Below are positions 3,506 to 60,355 of a stretch of DNA of 64,000 nt, in pieces; the stretch's first letter is position 1, and each line of letters begins with the position of its first letter. Origin of the DNA: Mobula hypostoma (taxonomy: Eukaryota); assembly GCF_963921235.1 (NCBI RefSeq), contig NC_086097.1, positions 121,646,001-121,710,000 of the forward strand. Direction: 5' to 3'. The position numbers and the translations under genes were made by a program. The notes under the pieces were generated by a model that worked only from the letters and a program-made list of their open reading frames with translations, was not told the origin of the DNA and made no database searches.

Positions 3506-6500
3506 GCTTGGTTGAATTTCCCGAGTAGTACAATTTAACCCATTAATGAAAGCAGCTATATTTTTTTACTCTAGAATTTTGCGTACAATTATAACTGTGA
3601 ACTAGGTACCCAATATGTTGACTCCACCTGCCCTTCCTGCTGAAATCCAGGGTCCCGAGCATGTCTAGCAAGGTCCGGTTGAACCTCTCTGGCTGGGAAT
3701 CACCCTGTGGGTTATAGGGCGTGGTCCTCGACTTCTTGACTCCAAGTATGCCCAGTAACTCACGGATGAGTCTGCTCTCGAAATCCCGTCTCTGATCACA
3801 ATATATTCACTTGGGAAGGCCATAATAAATGAAATACTCCCATAACACCTTTGCCACTGTAGACACCCTCTGGTCCTAGGAAAAGCCTGAGCATATCTGG
3901 TGTAGTGGTCCGTGATGACTAAGACATTCACCATGTTGCTGGCATCGGGTTCTATTGACAGGAAGCCCATACACACCAGGTCCAGAGGCCCCGCACTCTG
4001 AAGGTGGGACAAGGGAGCTGCCCGCATGGGCAGTGTCTTCTGCTATATGCATCGAATGCATGACTTGCAGTATTCTTCAACCTCCGTCTTCATTCGGGGC
4101 CAGTAAAACCGGACTCTGAACAATCCATAGGTCTTTTCCACCCTCAAATGTCCAGAATCATCATGAAGTGATTTCAACACCATCCTCCAATACTTCTCGG
4201 GCAGAACCAGCTGGCAATGCTGGGGTTGGTCTGGGGGTGACGTGACCCGGTATAAGATCTGGTTCTTCAACTCCAACCGAAGCCATTCTCGTAGTAATGG
4301 AGGCACCGACACGTGTTTCATCCTCTCCGCCTGAGCCATGACTCCCTTTTCAACCGCTGCCCAAATGGTACCAATGCCCGGGTCATCTTGCTGCGCAGCA
4401 GCCACTTCCCCAGAACTCAATTCCGGCAGCTGATTTGTCTTCAGAGCAGTCAGGGTACAATGAACTTGGGAGATGTCGTCATCAGAAGCCCCCAATTGAT
4501 CCACCACTCGCTCCTGCCCCTCCTTTCCCTCTGCCTTCACGGTGATGGCAAACTGACACAGGGCCTTCACCCCCGAGGCAGGAACGCTCTCCCACTCTCA
4601 TCCCTGACCAGTCCCTCATCCACCCATCAGGACAAAGCATTAACATCAATATTCCTGCTTCCCGGCCGGTACTTCAGGCTGAAATCATAGGCAGACAACA
4701 CTGCCAACCACCGATGGCCTGTGGCATCCAGTTTCCCCAAGGTCAGGATACAAGTTAGGAGGTTGTTGTCCACCTCAAACTTGGCCCCGTAGAGGTAGTC
4801 ACTCAACTTATCTACCACCAGCCACTTCAACGCTAGAAATTCCAACTTGTTTGTTGGATAGTTTTTCCTCAGAGGGCGACAGACTCCGGCTGACAAACGC
4901 AACGGGCTCAACCCAGAGCCCTGATGCTGATACAGGATGCCCCTTAAACCCTCTCCACTAGCATCGGTGTGCAGTACATACGGTAATCAGGGGTCTGCAA
5001 AAGCCAGCACCGGCGCCTGGGTCAGCAGCTCCTTCAGCGACTGGAAGGCCTCCTCACGTTTTGCATCCCAGCTTGGTCCAAAGGGCTCCGATGGACTAAG
5101 ATACTCTCCACCCTCCTGTCCTTTTCTCACCCCTCCCTTTCTTCCCCAAGGGAGGGTAACTAATTCAAAGGGTGACTCAATTTTGCATAACCTTTCACGA
5201 ACCTCTGATAGTAACCACAGAACCCAAGGAACGAGCGCAAAGCACTCACAGTCTGGGGTCTTGGCCAAGTGGAAACCACCTCGATCTTAGCTGGGTCTGT
5301 AGCTACCCCATCTTCTGAGACTATGTGCCCAACGTAGCTAACAGACATTTGGCAGAACTGGCACTTGTCCAGGGAAAGTTTTAACCCTTCAGCTTTCAGG
5401 CGGCCCAGCACCTTCAGCAGCCCCGCTTCATGTACTTCCAAGGTGGATCCAAATACTATGAGGTCATCCAGATACATAAACACCTCAAGCAAGTTCACAT
5501 CCCCCACAATCTTTTCCATGACCCGCTGGAAGGTTGCAGGAGCTCCCAAGTTGCCCTGGAGCATCCTTTCGAACTGGAAAAATCCAAGTGGACATATAAA
5601 TGCCATTTTCTCTTTGTCAGCCTCACTCGTGGGGATCTGGTAATATCCATTCCTCAAGTCCAGCACACTGAACCACCGCACCACTCAGGCAGGCCAACGT
5701 GTCTTCAATCCTTGGGACAGTATACTGGTCAGGGATGGTGTGCCTGTTCAGAGTCCTATAGTCCACATACATCTGTATCTTCCCATTCTTCTTTCGGGCC
5801 ACCACTACTGGGGACGCATAGGGGCTTCAGGACTCGGTGATGATCCCAGCTTCCTTCAACTTACACAAATGCTGCCGAACGTCCTCCGCCTATGCAGGGG
5901 CCAGTTGCTGCGACCTTTCTCAGAACGGGGTGTCCTTAGTCACCTAGATATTATGATGCGTGCTCTTGGAACAACCCACATCAAACTCGTCAGTGGAAAA
6001 GACACCTTCCAGCTTCAACATCTTCTCTACCAGCCTCCTCTTCCAACCCGCAGGAACCGGGGAGTCCTTGAAGTTGAATGACTCAGCGGTCAACTTTCCC
6101 CACTTTTCCAATAGTTTCTCCCCGGCCTGTCTCACAGGGGCATTAGATATTACTGCCACCAGGAACAAATGCGCCAGGGGCATCCTCTGCTTGAAGGTGA
6201 CCCTCCCTCTTCGCAGTGTTCCGGACAATCACTGCCAACCTGTGTTCTAGTACAACCGTGGGCTTCTGCAATTCAGGCGTCACTAGTACCCCAGAAGGAA
6301 ATCCCGACTCCCCCTCGTGGTCTTCCAGAGCGTCTACGAAGAGGACTTTGTCCTCAGGAACTCCGGGAAATTTGGGAGTCCCCATCACTCTCGCTACTTC
6401 CCCAGGCCATACCACCATTGGCTTCGACTGGGTGAACCACACAGTCCCGTGTTTAAATTCGGTATCTGGCCCAATGCTGCCACGCACTTCCTCAAAAGCA

Positions 6501-8208
6501 GCTCGAAACCCCGGGTGCACAGAGAATGTTCCCAGAAAGCTCTCACCCGCCTTCTCCTTACAGGCCCCCATGAGCCTCTTAACAAAAGGGGTGTTGGTCC
6601 CCACCAGAACTGAAATGCTGCCCGTCTCAACGGGGTCCGGACAAACCAGCACCAATGTATCAAGGACCTTTGACACTCCCACTTCGGCCTCCGGGAACTC
6701 CAACTTCACTGACAAATAACCATCATATGGATAATCACTAGCACTAAGCCCCCAGATCTCCAGTGCCCTGAATGCTGTCAATGGTAAATGCTTCAGATAC
6801 AGGTTGTAAAATGAACAGTATAACAATGTGACCTGCGACTCGGTGTCGAGTATGGCTTTAGCATAAATACCCTCTCTTCATAGCGACACACTGGAGGAGC
6901 ATGGACCCACTAAGTCTTCAGGAATTGGGCCTTTCGCTTTCGGAGGTTCCTTGGTACATTGCTGGGAACGTGTTCCCCCAGAGACACCAGGCCATTCCCA
7001 TACTTGGTCTCCTCTAAGTTTTTCCAACGACTCTCTCTGCTGAGGTACCCAGGGGCTCCCTCTCCTTCTGGCGTGACACCTGCTGCCAGCAGCCCTCTGC
7101 ATTGTTCATCCCCTCAGGGGATCCACCCCCACCCCCGCCATTGGCTCCATCATATGGGGAGGGGGTCACACCCACTGATAACAGCCGACATATCTCCGTT
7201 CTCAACTCTGCCACAATCTCCTCTACCGCTCCCCAGGGTAGGCTATCTGTGGTCACTTCACCGCAGGGGACCACTACCGAGGACTGTACCCTGCTGACAG
7301 AGGCCTCCTGCGCCTCTGCCGCGTTCTCCTTTTCCCGTACCTCTCTGATCAGCTCAACAAAAGATGGAGGGGGGCACATCTAACGAGACTGTCGGAGACC
7401 CCACGCAATCAGGTCCTGGGACTGGGCGCCCCTGGCTGTCTGGTCCGTTCTTAACTGATCCACCTCAGCCGCCTGAATGACCCCTCTGCTCCGCAATCAA
7501 TTTAGCTGCCTCTCCAGCCGAAAAATAAAAGCAGAAAACTTCTCCCTCTTCTCCTGACACATGTTTTGAAACCCCACCAGGAGCTCCATTAGGCTTCCAG
7601 TCGGACCAAAGCATTGTCCTGTGCTTGCAGATAATTGACAGCTGTCGCTACGGGAGATTTCAACCTGACAGCTCTCACAACGTCAGCAGCCCGCCCACTC
7701 AAACTTTCAACCAATCTGTGTCGCTTTTCATCATCAGAGCACTGCCACTCATCTAACAACGGAGAGGTCTGCTCCGCCCAAGTCTCATACTCCTCCTCCC
7801 CTTTAGGGGTGGGTGTTATTCCAGAGAATAGGCGGAGCCTGCCATAGCTGGGACTTTGAGTCTGATTTTTCCATTTATTCACCAGAGAAGTAAGGGCAGA
7901 TACTAACTCAGAATTCTCACTCTTCACCGGTAGATGTGGACTAATTAAACATTCCAAATCCGACCATTCTTTCCCCTCACTCCTCAGAAATGAGAGAACC
8001 CTGTCTTTGAAATCTCCGTCCCCAGCTACCGCCACTTCAGCGCTGGTCTGCATTAAAACGAGAGCTGCGCCAGCCATTTTATCAAACCTCCGCTCACAAT
8101 TGCAACTTTAACATTTCCTAACAATGGAATTAACAATTCATCGGGAGTACAAATATCTGCCCCACTGGTTCATTGTTCAGGGTAATCACACAGCATCAAA
8201 TGGAATCA

Positions 8209-26020: not shown

Positions 26021-26648
26021 ATTTTTCCTGTGAAACTCCATTTGATAGCACACAATTATGTTATATCAAAATGAAGAATTCCTAGGCTAATAAGTTCAAC
26101 GAACTTTTACGTTAGAGCCACAAGGAGAAATCAAGAAAAAGTAATTTCCATCATCGGCTGTATTTGTTCAGAATTTATTTCTGCTTTTAATGATCTGATT
26201 AAGTTCAGGAAGGATTTTATCATGGTTCAGGACACTAATTTTATTTTCTAATTCCAGATAAATGGTAAAATCAAAAGTAAATATTTTCCATTTGTTGATG
26301 CAAGCTGTAAATCAGTTTGGCGGGGCAGTACCTTTTCACTCATCCTCTGTTCCTTGCCATTTTGAATAAGGATAAGACTGAACACCTTTTGGCTGGACAA
26401 TGTCATCTGAAGAACAAACAGATTAAACTGCAGATTAACCTGATGGCATGAACATTGACTTCTCTAACTTCCGCTAATTATTTAGGTGTATGTGGACTAT
26501 ATTAAATGGTGATATCTACCACACGTACGAAAATAGTTAGAAACATAGATAAACAACAGGAATTCTGCAGATGCTGGAAATTCAAGCAACATACATCAAA
26601 GTTGCTGGTGAACGCAGCAGGCCAAGCAGCATCTATAGGAAGAGGCGC

Positions 26649-26684
26649 AGTCGACGTTTCAGGCCGAGACCCTTCGTCAGGACT
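26649..26684 (-). ncRNA. Minimal hammerhead ribozyme (inverted pLTR copy)
   Basis: Exact reverse complement of 27261-27296. Confidence 0.85.
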
Positions 26685-27260
26685 AACTGAAGGAAGAGTG
26701 AGTAAGGGATTTGAAAGCTGGAGGGGGAGGGGGAGATGCAAAATGATAGGAGAAGACAGGAGGGGGAGGGATAGAGCCGATTTTAATTTTAATTTTAATC
26801 CTAATTTTAATTCCACATCCCATTCCCATTCTGACATGTCTATCCACGGCCTCCTCTACTGTAAAGATGAAGCCACACTCAGGTTGGAGGAACAACACCT
26901 TATATTCCGTCTGGGTAGCCTCCAACCTGATGGCATGAGCATCGACTTCTCTAACTTCCACTAAGGCCCCACCTCCCCCTCGTACCCCATCTGTTACTCA
27001 TTTTTATGCACATATTCTTTCTCTCACTCTCCTTTTTCTCCCTCTGTCCCTCTGAATATACCTCTTGCCCATCCTCTGGGTCACCCCCCCCTCCTCGTCT
27101 TTCTTCCCGACCTCCTGTCCCATGATCCTCTCGTATCCCCTTTTGCCTTTCACCTGTCCAGCTCTCGGCTCTATCCCTCCCCCTCCTGTCTTCTCCTATC
27201 ATTTTGCATCTCCCCCTCCCCTTCCAGCTTTCAAATCCCTTACTCACTCTTCCTTCAGTT

Positions 27261-27296
27261 AGTCCTGACGAAGGGTCTCGGCCTGAAACGTCGACT
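27261..27296 (+). ncRNA. Minimal type I hammerhead ribozyme (upstream pLTR)
   Basis: AGTC-CTGACGA-AGGgtctcggCCT-GAAA-cg-TC^GACT; predicted cleavage after 27292. Confidence 0.88.
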
Positions 27297-27430
27297 GCGC
27301 CTCTTCCTATAGATGCTGCTTGGCCTGCTGCGTTCACCAGCAACTTTGATGTGTGTTGCTTGAATTTCCAGCATCTGCAGAATTCCTGTTGTTTGCATTT
27401 AAATTCACTACTGCGAAGCCTCTTCCGGTG

Positions 27431-30400
27431 ATGCCTACACCGAAGAAGTTTAGATCCTCTCTTCGACGGGAGTTCAGTGAAACCATCTCTCACTGCTCCC
27501 CATCTGTAATTTCTTCGGCTCTTCAACTTTTCGACCACACTTTGACTCAAACTCGCTATCACAGCCATGTATCCTTTCTTGGAACGTGCCTCCGTCGCCA
27601 ACTTACTCCAGTTGGCTTTAGGATTCGTTTCCAAGCCTCTCAATTTGGACCTTCTGAGGATCCCAGGTACTCATATTTTATTGACTCTGCCTCTCGCCGC
27701 TTCTCCCGTCAAGCTCTGAAGGCGACGCTCTCCGCCATGAGGAGGTACTTGGTGTCCCTATCCCAGACCCTTCCACACCTTTGGGACACTTTCTTCGCCG
27801 TCTGTAATGGTCCTACCCGTTATTTCATCCTCCGTCGGATCCACGCCTGCAATCGCCGTTTTTTTGACTTTGTCATGTTAGGCAAAGATCGCAAGATCTT
27901 ACATCTACGCTCCAGAGCCTGCCGGCCCCGATGCTAGCAGGCATGAACTTTCAATTGCGGCTCCTGCCATTGATCTCGGCGGCTCCAACACCTCATGACA
28001 TATTCAAAACCCGGACTCCAGCAACGACCATGGACACATTCGAAGTGATTACGCAACCACCAACTGCGACTCCAGCCTTGAACTCCAGGCTGGGTCTTTA
28101 TGTGCTGCTGTGGTGACTCCCGTCTCCACTTCCCCCACCACCACTCCGCAGCCCCATCTTCCTCAGATCCCACCGTCAACTCCTGGGTCCTCAGAGGCTC
28201 CATCTTCCTCTCACCCCAACCCTCCCCTCTCCACTGACACCACCAGCCTCCCCCCTCCCCCCTCTGATCCCAGCTCTCATCCGTGCCGGGTCTTTACCAT
28301 CCCCTCCGACCTTCAACTGTCGGAGGCAGAACGCTCTGTTCTCAGTAAGGGCCTCACGTTTGTCCCCCTTCGCCCACACCTCAGCGAGTTCCGTGTTCGC
28401 CACGATGCGGAACTTTTCTTCCGCCGTCTCCGTCTCCGAGCCTACTTCTTCGGCAAGGACTCTTCCACCCCCACCGATGACCCTTTCTCTCGTCTTCAAC
28501 CCTCCTCTTCTTTATGGACACCCCGCTCTGGTCTTCTGCCTGCTCTGGATCTCTTTATTGCCAACTGCCGACGGGACATCAACCGTCTCGACTTCACTGC
28601 ACCTTGTCCCCATTCCAACCTCACTCCTTCGGAACGCTGTGCTCTCCACTCCCTCCGCACTAACCCTAACATTATTATTAAACCCGCTGATAAAGGGGGT
28701 GCTGTTGTAGTCTGGCGTACTGACCTCTACCTTGCCGAGGCACAGCGACAACTCGCGGATACCTCCTCTTATTTACCCCTCGATCGTGACCCCACTAAGG
28801 AGCACCAGGCCATTGTCTCCCACACTATCAACGACTTTATCCGCTCAGGGGATCTCCCATCCACTGCTACCAACCTTATAGTTCCCACACCCCGCACTTC
28901 CCGTTTCTACCTCCTACCCAAGATCCACAAACCTGCCTGTCTTGGCCGACCTATTGTCTCAGCTTGCTCCTGCCCCACCGAACTCGTTTCTGCATACCTC
29001 GACACTGTTTTATCACCCCTTGTTCAATCCCTTCCGACCTATGTTCGTGACACTTCTCACGCTCTTAAACTTTTCGATGATTTTAAGTTCCCTGGCCCCC
29101 ACCGCTTTATTTTCACCATGGATGTCCAGTCCTTATATACTTCCATCCCCCATCAGGAAGGTCTCAAAGCTCTACGCTTCTTTTTGGATTCCAGACCTAA
29201 TCAGTTCCCCTCTACCACCACTCTGCTCCGTCTAGCGGAATTAGTCCTTACTCTTAATAATTTCTCCTTTTGCTCCTCCCATTTCCTCCAAACTAAAGGT
29301 GTAGCTATGGGCACCCGTATGGGTCCTAGCTATGCCTGCCTTTTTGTTGGGTTTGTGGAACAATCTATGTTCCGTGCCTATTCTGGTATCTGTCCCCCAC
29401 TTTTCCTTCGCTACATCGACGACTGCATTGGCGCTGCTTCCTGCACGCATGCAGAACTCGTTGACTTTATTAACTTTGCCTCCAACTTTCACCCTGCCCT
29501 CAAGTTTACCTGGTCCATTTCCAACACCTCCCTCCCCTTTCTAGATCTTTCTGTCTCTGTCTCTGGAGACAGCTTATCCACTGATGTCTACTATAAGCCT
29601 ACTGACTCTCACAGCTATCTGGACTATTCCTCTTCTCACCCTGTCTCTTGCAAAAACGCCATCCCCTTCTCGCAATTCCTCCGTCTCCGCCGCATCTGCT
29701 CTCAGGATGAGGCTTTTCATTCTAGGACGAGGGAGATGTCTTCATTTTTTAAAGAAAGGGGCTTCCCTTCCTCCACTATCAACTCTGCTCTTAAACGCAT
29801 CTCCCCCATTTCACGTACATCTGCTCTCACTCCATCCTCCCACCACCCCACTAGGAATAGGGTTCCCCTGGTCCTCACCTACCACCCCACCAGCCTCCGG
29901 GTCCAACATATTATTCTCCGTAACTTCCGCCACCTCCAACGGGATCCCACCACTAAGCACATCTTTCCCGCCCCCCTCTTTGCATTCCGCAGGGATCGCT
30001 CCCTACACAACTCCCTTGTCCATTCGTCCCCCCCATCCCTCCCCACTGATCTCCCTCCTGGCACTTATCCGTGTAAGCGGAACAAGTTCTACACATGCCC
30101 TTACACTTCCTCCCTTACCACCATTCAGGGCCCCAAACAGCCCTTCCAGGTGAGGCATCACTTCACCTGTGAGTCGACTGGGGTGATATACTGCGTCCGG
30201 TGCTCCCGATGTGACCTTTTATATATTGGTGAGACCCGACGCAGACTAGGAGACCGCTTTGCTGAACATCTACGCTCTGTCCGCCAGAGAAAGCAGGATC
30301 TCCCAGTGGCCACACATTTTAATTCCACATCCCATTCCCATTCTGACATGTCTATCCACGGCCTCCTCTACTGTAAAGATGAAGCCACACTCAGGTTGGA

Positions 30401-30476
30401 GGAACAACACCTTATATTCCGTCTGGGTAGCCTCCAACCTGATGGCATGAACATTGACTTCTCTAACTTCCGCTAG
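27431..30476 (+). pseudogene. PLE polyprotein (N-terminal domain, RT, Cys linker, GIY-YIG endonuclease); intact from ~27999, with one frameshift and one stop upstream
   Basis: N-terminal HVSFLGTCLRRQLTPVGF; RT motifs KPADKG, TMDVQSLYTSI, GVAMGTRMGP, RYIDD, FLD; linker PCKRNKFYTC; endonuclease GVIYCVRCSRCDLLYIGETRR. Frameshift near 27908 and TGA at 27996-27998. Confidence 0.93.
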
Positions 30477-30770
30477 GCCCCACCTCCCCCTCGTACCCCA
30501 TCTGTCACTCATTTTTATGCACACATTCTTTCTCTCACTCTCCTTTTTCTCCCTCTGTCCCTCTGAATATACCTCTTGCCCATCCTCTGGGTCACCCCCC
30601 CCTCCGTCTTTCTTCCCGGACCTCCTGTCCCATGATCCTCTCGTATCCCCTTTTGCCTATCACCTGTCCAGCTCTCGGCTCTATCCCTCCCCCTCCTGTC
30701 TTCTCCTATCATTTTGCATCTCCCCCTCCCCCTCCAGCTTTCAAATCCCTTACTCACTCTTCCTTCAGTT

Positions 30771-30806
30771 AGTCCTGACGAAGGGTCTCGGCCTGAAACG
30801 TCGACT
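30771..30806 (+). ncRNA. Minimal type I hammerhead ribozyme (downstream pLTR)
   Basis: Identical to 27261-27296; predicted cleavage after 30802. Confidence 0.88.
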
Positions 30807-31521
30807 GCGCCTCTTCCTATAGATGCTGCTTGGCCTGCTGCGTTCACCAGCAACTTTGATGTGTGTTGCGTAGATTAAACTGCAGCTTTTTTATAAACTT
30901 AATTAGCTAGTCTGAATGATGCTGAAAGGAGGGGGGACTTGAAATATGAATATGAATCTTCTACTGACGTGCATTTAGCATCATTCTTGGCAGAATGTGG
31001 CCAAGAGATCAGGATGTTTTGATGTTAATTGCTATGTAGTAGCAGGACTGAAAGGACAAAAGCTTTCAATCTGTTCCAGCTGCATTCTTATCTCAGATCG
31101 GGTTTGAGAGTGACTGATAGATTTGGTATGCTATCCAATTATATATAAAAAGGAACTAATTCTGATAATCTACATGAAGATGCTTGCTGACTGAGGCAGA
31201 AGAGCCATTAGCTGAACTCCATGGCTTTGTAACTGAAATGTCAGCTATTAGCTGACACAGTAGTAATTTAAACAAATATTTCCCTTCATATATTGAGCTG
31301 AAAAGTTACACTTTGGACTGAAAACTTCCAATCAACATTAACTGCACTGTACATTAATATTTTATATTGCATGGTTCAAGATGTGATTTGCATTTTAAAT
31401 TGGAAGGTGATCCCTTTGCAGGAAGCAGGCAATATTGTATATGGGTCGTTGATTGTGAATTATGTTACTAATTATCAATATGATAACTTTAGGTCTTTTC
31501 TGCTTCTAATCTGTATTACAG

Positions 31522-48400: not shown

Positions 48401-48807
48401 GCTGCCTCACTTGTGGACTTGAGGCACCATGAAACTGCACTTCTGGGAGCAGAATTGAGAAGACTGCCGAGATTAGTGCAGTAAATAGCATTTATATGTT
48501 TGCACCTACAGTACGGTCGGGTGCCGGACGCTCGGAGAGATTCAGCGGTGGGGGGGACAGCCGCACGGTGCTCGGCCAGGGGCCGTGGTCGAGTGGTCAG
48601 CGACTTGGGCTGGCTCCCCCACCAGACTTAGTCTGGTGAGGAGAGTGTGAGAACACCCAGCAGGGCTAAAAAAAAAAGACCTGACAAAGGGCGGATGAGC
48701 TCCTTGTGAGTCAACGGCCATCTTCCGTGGAAGAGATTAAAGCCTCACCACGTATCTACAAATCGTATGCTATGCACTTAGTTAGAAGAGACATGATGAA
48801 CTTGGGC

Positions 48808-48985
48808 GCTGCACTGTGTGCCTGGACCTGCCCAAGGCCTCGGCCTAAGGAAGGGCTGAGCTCGAAGAAGCAGCCGCGGCTGGAGGCCGACACGGCCTCG
48901 GGCTCGAGTTCAGCGGGGGTGGCGGCAGGAGGTGCCAAGGCGGCCAGCGAGAACAAACTGGAGGAGAGGCTGTACTCGGTGCTGT
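48808..48985 (+). pseudogene. ZFTRAF1: Circularly permuted 178-bp fragment of CYHR1/ZFTRAF1-like coding sequence
   Basis: 48844-48985 encodes ...[12 protein letters not shown]+T and 48808-48843 encodes GC+[11 protein letters not shown]. Swapped, they give [22 protein letters not shown], the remembered CYHR1 RING-start motif. Confidence 0.85.
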
Positions 48986-49164
48986 CACAAAATCGAAGAA
49001 GATGGAGGTGCATAGCCGCCAACCCCGGATTCGGGACGGCACCCACTGACTGACTTAAAAATGATTTAAAAATGTTTCCCTTTTTGAATTTCCCTTTTTG
49101 AGATTCCCTTTCAGCAGTCAGGAAAACAATGTTTGAAGAAAAAAGTGAACTTTAAGAAAAATGT

Positions 49165-52100
49165 GCCAGTGAGAGTAAGAATAGGATGCTCTGGCGGATA
49201 AACGCGTGGCTGAGGAACTGGTGTAGGGGGCAGGGTTTCAGATTTCAGGATCATTGGGACCTCTTCTGGGGCAGGTGGGACTTGTACAAGAGAGACCGGT
49301 TACACCTGAACTACAGGGGGACCGACATCCTTGCAGGGAGGTTTGTTAGTGCTTTTGAGGAGGGTTTAAACTAGATTTACAGGGGGATGGGAACCAGAGT
49401 GCCAGAGCAGATAGTGGAGCTGGGGTGAAAATAAATGATGTTAAAAGTTCATGCAAAGTCACAAATAGAAGGGTTGTGTGTGGTGGTAATAATCTTCTGA
49501 GGTGTGTCTATTTCAATGCAAGGAGTATTGTGGGGAAGGCTGATGTGCTGAGGACGTGGATTAACACATGGAATTAGGACATTATCGCCATTAGTGAAAT
49601 TTGGCTGCAGAAGGGGCAGGACTGGCAGCTTAATGTTCCAGGGTTCCAATGTTTCAGACGTGATAGAGGTAGAGGAATGAAGGGTGAGGGGGGTGGGTGG
49701 GTTGGCATTGCTAGTCAGGGAAAATGTTACAGCAGTGCTCAGGCAGGACAGATTAGAGGGCTTGTCTACCAAGGTCATATGGGTGGAGCTGAGAAACAGG
49801 AAAGGTATGACCACATTAATGGGGTTGTATTATAGACCACCCAATAGTCAGCGAGAATTGGAGGAGCAGATCTGCAGAGAGATAGCAGACAACTGCAGAA
49901 AACATAAAGTTGTAATAGTAGGGGATTTTAATTTTCCACATATTGATTGGGATTCCCATACTGTTAAAGGTCTAGACGGGTTAGAGTTTGTAAAATGTGT
50001 TTAGGAAAATTTTCTAACTCAATATAGAGAAGTACCAACTAGAGAGGATGCAATATTAGATCTCCTATTGGGAAACGAGTTAGGACAGGCGACGAAAGTG
50101 TGTGTAGGGGAACACTTTGGTTTCAGTGATCGTAACACCATTAGTTTCAACTTGATCATGGATAAAGATAGATCTGGTCCTCGGGTTGAGGTTCTAAACT
50201 GGAAAAAGGCCAAATTTGAAGAAATGAGAAAGGATTTAAAAAGCGTGGATTGGGACAGGTTGTTCTCTGGCAAAGATGTGATTGGTAAGTGGGAAGCCTT
50301 CAAAGGAGAAATTTTGAGAGTGCAGAGTTTGTATGTTCCTGTCAGGATTAAAAGCAAAGTGAATAAGAATAAGGAACCTTGGTTGTCAAGGGATATTGGA
50401 ACTCTGATAAAGAAAGGGATGTATGACATGTATAGGAAAGAGGGAGCAAATAAGGTGCTTGAGGAGTATAAAAAGTGCAAAAAAATACTTCAGAAAGAAA
50501 TCAGGAGGGCTAAAAGAAGACAAGAGGTTGCTTTGGCAGTCAAGATGAAGGATAATCCAAAGAGCTTCTACAGATATATTAAGAGCAAAAGGATAGTAAG
50601 GGATAAAATTGGTCCTCTTGAAGATCAGAGTGGTCGGCTATGTATGGAACCAAAAGAAATGGGGGAGACCTTAAATGGTTTTTATTGCGTCTGTATTTAC
50701 TAAGGAAGCTGGCATGGAGTCAATGGAAATAAGGCAAACAAGTAGTGAGGTCATGGAACCTATACAGATTGAGGAGGAGGAGGTGCTCGCTATCCTGTGG
50801 CAAATCAGAGTAGATAAATCCTCAGGATTTGACAAGGTATTCCCTCAGACCTTGAAGGAGACTAGTGTTGAAATTGCAGGAGCCCTGGCAGATATATTTA
50901 AAATGTCGGTACCTACGGATGAGGTGCCGGAGGATTGGAGGACAGCTCAGGTTATTCCATTTTTTAAAAAAGGCTCTAAAAGTAATCTGGGAAATTATAG
51001 GCTGATAAAGTTGATGTCAGTAGTTGGTAAGTTATTGGAAGGAGTACTGAGAGATAGGACCTACAAGTATTTGGATAGACAGGGATTTATTAGGGAGAGT
51101 CAACATGGCTTTGTGCATGGTAGGTCATGTTTAACCAATCTATCAGAGTTTTTCGAGGAGGTTACCAGGAAAGTGGATGAACAAAAGCAGTGAATGTTGT
51201 CTACATGGACTTCAGTAAGGCCTTTGACAAGGTCCCGCATAGGAGGTTAGTTAGGAAAATTCAGTCGCTAGGTATACATGGAGAGGTAGTAAATTGGATT
51301 AGACATTGGCTCAATGGAAGAAGCCAGAAAGTGGTAGTGGAGGATTGCTTCTCTGAGTGGAGGCCTGTGACTAGTGGTGTGCCACAGGGATCAATGCTGG
51401 GTCCATCGTTATTTGTCATCTATATCAATAAGATCTGGATGATAATGTGGTAAATTGGATCAGCAAATTTGCTGATGATACAAAGATTGGAGGTGTAGTG
51501 GACAGTGAGAAAGGTTTTCAAAGCTTGCAGAGGGATTTAGACCAGCTGGAGAAATGGGCTAAAAATGGCAGATGGAGTTTAATACAGACAAGTGTGAGGT
51601 ATTGCACTTTGGAAGGACAAACCAAGGTAAAACACACAAGGTAAATGGTAGAGCACTGAGGTGTGCAGTAGAACAGAGGGATCTGGGAATACAAATATAA
51701 AATTCCCTAAAAGTGGCGTCACAGGTAGATAGGGTTGTAAAGAGAGCTTTTGGTACACTGGCTTTTATAAATCAAAGTATTGAGTATAAGAGTTGGAATG
51801 TTATGGTGAGGTTGTATAAGGCTATGGTGAGGTTGAACTTGGAGTACTGTGTACAATTTTGGTCAAATTGCAGGAAGGATATTAATAAGGTTGAAAGAAT
51901 GCAGAGAAGGTTTACACGGATGTTGCCGGGACTTGAGAAACTGAGTTACAGAGAAAGGTTGAATAGGTTAGGACTTTATTCCCTGGAGTGTAGAAGAATG
52001 AGGGGAGATTTGATAGAGGTATATAAAATTATGATGGGTATAGATAGAGTGAATGCAAGCAGGCTTTTTCCACTGAGGCAAGGGGAGAAAAAAACCAGAG

Positions 52101-52360
52101 GACATGGGTTAAGGGTGAAGGGGGAAAAGTTTAAAGGGAACATTGGGGGTGCTTCTTCACACAGAGAGTGGTGGGAGTTTGGAATGAGCTGCCAGATGAA
52201 GTGGTAAATGCGGGCTCACTTTTAACATTTAAAAAAAACTCGGACAGTTACATGGATGAGAGGTGTATGGAGGGATATGGTCCAGGTGCAGGTCGGTAGG
52301 ACTAGGCAGAAAATGGTTCTGTACAGCCAAGAAGGGCCAAAATGTTCTATGGTTCTATGG
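49165..52360 (+). mobile_element. CR1 LINE, 5'-truncated: end of ORF1 (esterase-like) plus disrupted ORF2 (APE-RT)
   Basis: LYKRDRLHLNYRGT (ORF1); [46 protein letters not shown]; tail ttctatggttctatgg. Confidence 0.95.
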
Positions 52361-59375: not shown

Positions 59376-60355
59376 AAATTGTTAAGCTTATCCAGAGTTT
59401 CTATTCTAACTTCATCTGAATAATTGTGGACTTAATTTGAGCTTTGAAGTCAAGACAAGTCAGGCAAGGCTCTATGATGTCGGCGATATTGATTAACTTG
59501 GTGATTGACTGGGTTATGAGGCAGACAGTGAAAGATGAACAGAGAGGCATTGAGTGGACTCTATTCTCTACTTTGGAAGACCTTGACTTTACGGATGAAT
59601 TCACATACTGTCACATACACGCCAGCACATGTAAGAGAAAACACAGCACCTGTGTATCTTCGGTGGACAGCTTGGACTCAGAGCCAGCCAGAGAAAGACT
59701 GAGAGCGTGCCCCTCAATGTAGAGTCTCCCGTCAAGGCATAGGACATCAACTTACCCTGCACTGGCAGATTCACCAACCTGGGCACCATCATTCCGCAGG
59801 ATGGTGGGACCGAGGACGACTCCAGTGCAGGCTCAGCAAAGCTAGAAAAGCCTTCAGTTCAATGAGCAGCATATGGGGTTCAACCAAGTACAGCGTCCAC
59901 AGCAAGGTGAAGCTGTACCACAGCTGTGTTCTGTCGCCACTCTTGTTCGGGTCAGAGTGCCGGCGCGTGACAGAGACTGGCCTTGCCAAGCTGCCATCGT
60001 TCCACACCATGAGCCTCTGGATGATCCTCCAAGAAAGATCTCTAACCACGCCCTACTCCTTCATTGTCACCCTGAGGACGTGGCCGCAATCACCATGAGG
60101 AAACATTGGAGGTGGATTGGGCAGATGTTGAGAAGAGAGGCCAACTCCATCATCAAGAAAGCACTTCATTGGACCCCTGAAGGGCAGAGGAAACGCGGGA
60201 GACTAAAGACAACTTGGCACTGTACGGTAGAGGCAGAAATGAGGGCCCTGAACCACACCTGGTGTGCATTAGAGAAGACGGCCAACAACAGACAGATAGA
60301 GGAACTTCATTACTGCCCCAAATGCCAGTGGCATAACAGGCAGTAACTAACTAGC
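59376..60355 (+). mobile_element. RTE-clade LINE 3' fragment
   Basis: VRQG...VIDWVMR...LEDLDFTD; WRWIGQMLRRE...ALHWTPEGQRKRGRLKTTW; (taac)n tail; 14-bp TSD tatatttgcctcca at 59362-59375 and 60356-60369. Confidence 0.92.

Follow-up and report, generated by a model that had tools for sequence, protein, structure and literature searches.

The 64,000-nt stretch of the Mobula hypostoma genome analysed here (the window; contig NC_086097.1, positions 121,646,001 to 121,710,000, forward strand) carries on its plus strand, at 48514..49055, one copy of a ~560-bp non-autonomous retroposon of RTE type, which lacks the first 32 nt of its family consensus and at which no target-site duplication was found. 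Its left end (48514..48611) is the remnant of a fold-back head, recognised by consensus alignment and folding, that consists of LINE 5′ UTR with a 98-nt deletion together with its own inverted copy, a ~50-bp stem in full-length copies, and bears fixed A-to-G changes. The remaining LINE 5′ UTR and the start of the LINE ORF follow (48612..48807), with 7-nt and 10-nt deletions relative to the LINE consensus to which they were aligned. Next come two segments of the first exon of ZFTRAF1, placed by BLASTN and by comparison of cut points: segment B (40 nt, 48808..48847), which in the gene lies downstream of A, and segment A (138 nt, 48848..48985), which begins on AG. LINE alignment identifies the right end (48986..49055) as the last ~70 nt of the LINE, comprising the ORF end, the stop codon and an (ACTG)n tail. 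A putative chimeric open frame of 93 codons runs from the first ATG of the LINE to the LINE stop (48772..49053, plus strand); it reads A, but not B, in the native frame.

Other mobile elements share the window. A young Penelope-like element occupies 26506-30870, with direct and inverted terminal repeats 98-99% identical and an 825-aa open frame at 27999-30476 whose motifs we take to be RT-like and GIY-YIG-like. The listing of open reading frames places on the minus strand, at 4043-8107, what remains of a broken LTR-retrotransposon-like element, including pieces that resemble gag, protease, RT and integrase. Just 3′ of the retroposon lies a broken CR1-like LINE (~49160-52345), which we place outside the family because the tails of other copies lack it nearby; the end of another RTE-like LINE frame, at 59846-60346, has no DNA match to the retroposon.

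The exon piece is a base-precise permutation. Its segments stand in the order B then A across 48808-48985, and joining A ahead of B gives an unbroken translation; segment A matches the sawfish ZFTRAF1 protein at 63%. The original prediction had recognised the piece as CYHR1/ZFTRAF1, and a search with the sawfish protein located that single parent gene: ZFTRAF1 is single-copy in the assembly, with four coding exons on the minus strand of contig C5 that match the sawfish protein at 86-99% identity, exon 1 being C5:228090993-228091328. In BLASTN against the reverse-complemented locus, A corresponds to 1646-1783 and B to 1784-1823, so that the two are contiguous in exon 1, as predicted, with no base gained or lost. 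Among 12 cut points tried, the best ends B at 48847, with 3 mismatches; the predicted cut, after 48843, gives 5 and falls 4 nt too early, and because the later cut has the fewest mismatches, 48844-48847 is part of B rather than A. Of the 178 positions, 11 differ between the window copy and the parent, and 3 between the family consensus and the parent. Exact adjacency of A and B would arise by chance about once in 300, taking the start of B as random within the 327-nt coding part of exon 1.

The piece measures 178-180 bp, with 71% GC and a CpG observed/expected ratio of 0.91. B ends 4 nt upstream of the exon-1 splice donor and A begins on AG, as do 7% of positions. The original prediction held that the B-A junction had no exon-boundary character and on that ground preferred a DNA circle to a circular RNA; because the junction does have such character, that argument falls. 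We did not find the piece in a tandem array. Within intron 1 of ZFTRAF1 (~91 kb), one kilobase is CpG-rich at 66% GC (locus L063, 9001-10000). Words of exon 1 sought in public sequencing runs gave 14 rows with at least half of the words, from three organisms, and are not informative on expression or cross-species spread; the predicted fold of exon-1 RNA leaves every junction position unpaired and is uninformative.

The permuted piece belongs to a large dispersed family. Of 928 candidate matches, 40 were scored, and every one of these is permuted and complete, at 93-100% identity; they lie on many contigs, and in nearly all of 30 loci the sequence common to copies starts well upstream of the piece and ends at 49055. 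A 25-letter motif spanning the B-A junction has 367 exact matches in the genome, against none for a reversed control; this motif is present in 11 of 30 copies chosen by their 5′ head alone, which gives an estimate of ~1000 copies (95% range 650-1840). The exon piece itself is present in 28 of these 30 head-selected copies, the alignments of the remaining two ending before it. Left part, piece and 3′ end are all found in 84 of 90 distinct copies, and from these 84 the family consensus was built, the 6 other rows being left out. A fixed 3′ end, variable 5′ truncation and target-site duplications are the marks of target-primed reverse transcription. Across the 84 copies the 3′ end is fixed and carries the (ACTG)n tail, the 5′ ends vary, with clusters around consensus positions 0, 20-30 and 80-98, and repeats of at least 7 nt flank 32 copies, compared with 2 of 84 controls. 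We conclude that the family multiplied by retrotransposition. What had been predicted as a single local insertion is a multicopy repeat to which both flanks also belong. A multicopy repeat was among the conditions that the original prediction had named as refuting it, although that repeat was to have arisen by tandem duplication and this one spread by retrotransposition.

Variable sites in the 84 copies show no linkage (smallest p 0.07), and hence no subfamily structure, and a search of 48450-49100 against Rfam returned four matches, all far under their gathering scores, with no ribozyme or tRNA family. The window copy is an ordinary, worn member; the family itself is real and unusual. Individual copies have local histories: one locus (L008) holds two copies in opposite orientation ~350 bp apart (488-976 and 1332-1748), one copy (L058) looks split by another element, and four (L039, L044, L058 and L183) break within ~10 nt of the left LINE-exon junction, where a fragile spot and chance are both possible.

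The LINE that supplied the two ends is also present in the genome. In a genome pattern search the right-hand 70 nt occur without A upstream at 164 places, and all 30 LINE-type loci examined among these carry the last ~70 nt at 88-97% identity, with the same consensus tail and varying 5′ truncation points. Three long copies span ~3.2 kb, and 48586-48795 aligns to them at 81-87%; about 33 LINE copies retain the 5′ region. LINE copies encode a single broken endonuclease-RT frame, in which an endonuclease domain was found, and the protein relatives are endonuclease-RT proteins of ~1000 aa, the named ones mostly "craniofacial development protein 2" or "-like", which we take to be the usual label of RTE proteins. 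We call the LINE RTE-type, judging only by its ~3.2-kb size, one endonuclease-RT ORF, tandem tail and the names of its relatives. A fourth long copy is 5′-inverted, and 5′ inversions or rearrangements mark the LINE copies at L113, L181 and L183. Two 5′-truncated LINE ends (L097 and L100) have ~1 kb of common flank at 98% identity, probably a segmental duplication on contig C2. A ray protein annotated as PD-L1-like contains a stretch 85% identical to the LINE ORF over 23% of the query, explained by either an erroneous gene model or the exonisation of a LINE piece.

In the retroposon, the exon piece stands in place of 2905-2910 nt of the LINE ORF (~2.9 kb), so that endonuclease and RT are both missing, and both LINE-exon junctions are blunt. 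A pattern of the element's left end followed by anything except B had no exact match in the genome, and of 17 LINE-type left ends 16 continue into the LINE ORF, with neither B nor the 3′ end of the LINE following any of them. An empty two-ended element was not found with either head type, by exact-match patterns that rare worn copies could escape. Because no such empty element was found, capture of the exon and deletion of the ORF were probably one event.

Element and LINE appear to be of similar age. Copies of the element diverge from their consensus by 2.6-3.5% at non-CpG sites and by 17-21% at CpG sites; for the LINE the non-CpG value is 3.3% (26 of 30 loci used). Because the non-CpG divergences are similar (3.3% against up to 3.5%), the two were likely active in the same period. 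The decay of CpG sites refutes the recent event or unmethylated site that had been proposed from the CpGs retained in the window.

The head of the element records a further step. In full-length copies the first ~125 nt fold to the ~50-bp stem, the 3′ arm being LINE 5′ UTR minus 98 nt and the 5′ arm an inverted copy of the 3′ arm; one full-length head has a folding z of -5.4 against 200 shuffles. Compared with a consensus built from 15 LINE copies, the hairpin head has G in place of 15 of 23 A, whereas outside the head 0 of 55 A are so changed in the LINE-derived left part (Fisher p 1e-10), and T-to-C changes number 0 of 19. Four other changes were tallied, one of them a consensus artefact at a CpG. 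The hairpin supplies an internal control: T in the 5′ arm is retained opposite the new G of the 3′ arm, turning A-U pairs into G-U. The changes are fixed across copies, with 98 of 100 listed arms changed at a non-CpG site; by a count made by eye, A stands in only 2 of 100 listed arms there and in ~18 of 100 at a CpG site. An unedited older subfamily was considered for one copy with LINE-like bases in its 5′ arm (L176) and rejected, as one double case fits back-mutation. ADAR disfavours A with a 5′ G, and a 5′ G lies beside 6 of 7 unedited head A compared with 5 of 15 edited ones, both small numbers. Clustered A-to-G changes are a hallmark of ADAR in the available text of PMC2873906, and in the head the cluster is likely the trace of ADAR acting on the master RNA, whose edits reverse transcription then fixed in DNA. 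Such editing attests an RNA stage of the master, common to every retroposon, and is silent on the route by which the exon was captured.

The B-A junction itself admits two readings of how the loop closed. Either a blunt 178-nt loop closed with no microhomology, or a 180-nt loop from donor to AG, whose ends share 3 nt, later lost 2 nt. Microhomology at the outer ends, anticipated by the original prediction, is accordingly zero for the best 178-bp reading and 3 nt for the 180-bp one, and these 3 shared nt fit both splicing and microhomology joining. Junctions with 1-4 extra nt, as an intact splice-type joint would have, gave no exact match among genomic copies; with no copy keeping an intact splice-type junction, a splice would have to have been followed by the loss of 2 nt in the founder. 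The candidate acceptor is a weak cryptic AG within the first exon and is not the first AG past the best branch-point-like motif.

The reading frame bears on the same choice. Under the 180-nt reading, and before the 10-nt deletion, the first ATG of the LINE, B, A and the last LINE codons form one open frame in which both exon pieces are native; the present element has 10 nt and 2 nt fewer, yet its frame still runs uninterrupted between that ATG and that stop, and 35 of 83 copies keep this short frame open. Coincidences of frame of this kind have chances of roughly 1 in 14 to 1 in 27 and were spotted after the fact, and frame continuity under the 180-nt reading is suggestive only.

We suggest, at about an even chance, that the founder captured the exon piece when the LINE reverse transcriptase switched to a looped or circular ZFTRAF1 exon-1 RNA, copied it for exactly one lap and switched back. 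The loop would close at or beside the exon-1 splice donor, by back-splicing to the cryptic AG (180 nt, later minus 2 nt) or alternatively through a jump of the enzyme between the two ends of a free exon-1 fragment; copying would end at one lap, with the loop nicked once or the enzyme meeting its own cDNA; the same two template switches would delete the ~2.9 kb of LINE ORF; the head of the founder would fold back, its RNA would be edited by ADAR and the edits reverse-transcribed; and the LINE would then amplify the chimeric master in trans. We prefer an RNA route because the end of B lies near the splice donor and the piece is in sense orientation. To account for the exact adjacency it would be enough that a DNA circle was cut once, that an RNA circle was nicked once, or that the reverse transcriptase ran into its own cDNA when a lap was complete. 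Against capture from RNA stand the blunt LINE-exon junctions, unlike the microsimilarity reported at 25 of 29 junctions of LTR template-switch chimeras in the available text of Tan et al. (2016; PMC5131818), the 3 shared nt at the ends of the 180-nt reading, which suit a DNA circle, and the weakness of the frame coincidences.

A fuller version of RNA capture, for which the sequence makes a tentative and on balance doubtful case, would have the LINE reverse transcriptase copy exactly one lap of a back-spliced, 60-codon first-exon circRNA whose frame joined that of the LINE ORF on either side. The product, its fold-back head edited by ADAR and its translation kept open to the LINE stop by compensating deletions of 10 and 2 nt, would have given rise to a family of ~1000 copies that outnumbers the LINE. 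If true, a circRNA became a successful transposon.

Of the other accounts, a small DNA circle survives best, and judged from the same sequence features it is a serious candidate that we hold somewhat unlikely, capture from RNA being favoured over it. A nucleosome-sized circle from the CpG island of exon 1 would have been opened once and patched into a broken germline LINE, replacing the ORF, and the chimera would have become the retrotransposing master. The size, GC content and CpG ratio of the piece speak for such a source, and the original prediction was sound in finding them, with the CpG-island 5′ exon, consistent with small eccDNA. According to the available part of Hu et al. (2023; PMC10581685), the sizes of germline eccDNA have a peak at ~180 bp, 5′ UTRs are enriched among its sources and the circles form by microhomology. 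The 3 nt shared by the 180-bp ends agree with this, the blunt LINE junctions suit end joining, and a single cut yields exact adjacency. From a DNA circle, however, an end at the splice donor is not expected (by position a chance of roughly 1 in 100, in an after-the-fact estimate), microhomology is lacking under the 178-bp reading, and a simultaneous 2.9-kb deletion is required, no empty element having been found.

It is improbable that a larger DNA circle or duplication, opened at the A|B boundary, entered the LINE and that splicing from the donor to the cryptic AG trimmed its transcript to B-A ahead of amplification, in which case 178 bp would not be the size of the circle. Such an insert would account for the exact adjacency and the donor-proximal junction together; it likewise requires the 2-nt loss, and no longer form occurs among the 90 distinct copies or the 30 head-selected loci. 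Separate template switches onto linear ZFTRAF1 RNA, copying A and B independently, would suit a lineage prone to rearrangement, as seen in its 98-, 7- and 10-nt deletions, its fold-back head and the LINE copy with a 5′ inversion; they leave the adjacency to a coincidence of ~1 in 300, and we consider them very improbable. A recent DNA-circle integration at this locus, or an assembly chimera, would explain the permutation and nothing else, and is refuted by hundreds of dispersed copies with the same three junctions and flanks and by their decayed CpGs. Of the original prediction, the gene identity, the adjacency in exon 1 and a one-lap origin of circular type stand; the integration from a circle at this site gives way to a multicopy family with shared flanks.

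In its ~1000 copies the family would be a heritable record of a host exon that was looped, copied exactly one time round and dispersed by a LINE. Three phenomena meet in it, namely two-ended RTE derivatives, gene fragments derived from circles and RNA edits fixed in DNA, and its precisely known junction makes the question of an RNA or a DNA circle testable. The copies also have practical consequences: they give false matches to ZFTRAF1 exon 1 (98 of 102 protein matches), and they would imitate back-splice or eccDNA junctions in circRNA or Circle-seq pipelines. We found no description of this element, or of a permuted exon in a LINE derivative, in the journal literature searched.

Several known systems resemble parts of this history. 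Small eccDNA or microDNA of the germline, as described in the available part of Hu et al. (2023; PMC10581685), is like the exon piece in being ~180 bp, GC-rich and from a 5′ exon, and in its short shared ends under the 180-bp reading; the window locus differs in being a retrotransposed copy and not an integration site, and no empty pre-integration form was found. The LTR-mediated retroposition chimeras in the available text of Tan et al. (2016; PMC5131818) are similar in that a piece of host mRNA replaces part of the ORF between element ends and can be amplified further, whereas here the carrier is a non-LTR element, microsimilarity is absent from the blunt junctions, and the cargo has a permuted order. 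CircRNA-derived pseudogenes, of which mouse circRFWD2 has 33 high-confidence copies (Dong et al., 2016; PMC4897178), likewise fix a non-colinear junction in genomic DNA in many copies and in association with a retrotransposon. Those pseudogenes join annotated exon ends and are LTR-associated; in contrast, our junction lies inside one first exon, 2 nt short of a clean splice, spans exactly one lap and is carried by a LINE derivative, and the parent circRNA is putative.

In how it works, the element parallels the bipartite non-autonomous RTE LINEs (Bov-A, RTESINE1/2, WALLSI3 and MAR4_MD; Kojima, 2018; PMC5786205), which, in the passages describing them, similarly combine part of a LINE 5′ UTR with the extreme 3′ end and its microsatellite tail, have lost the ORF and spread in trans. 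Those passages yielded no case of a host exon as cargo in bipartite RTE derivatives, which usually consist of LINE sequence only and retain the extreme 5′ end, whereas the head of our element begins inside the LINE 5′ UTR. Unlike the derivatives described there, it also carries 178 permuted nt of a host coding exon between its halves and has a rebuilt, edited hairpin for a head. We conclude that the element is a variant of the bipartite non-autonomous RTE LINEs rather than a plain member.
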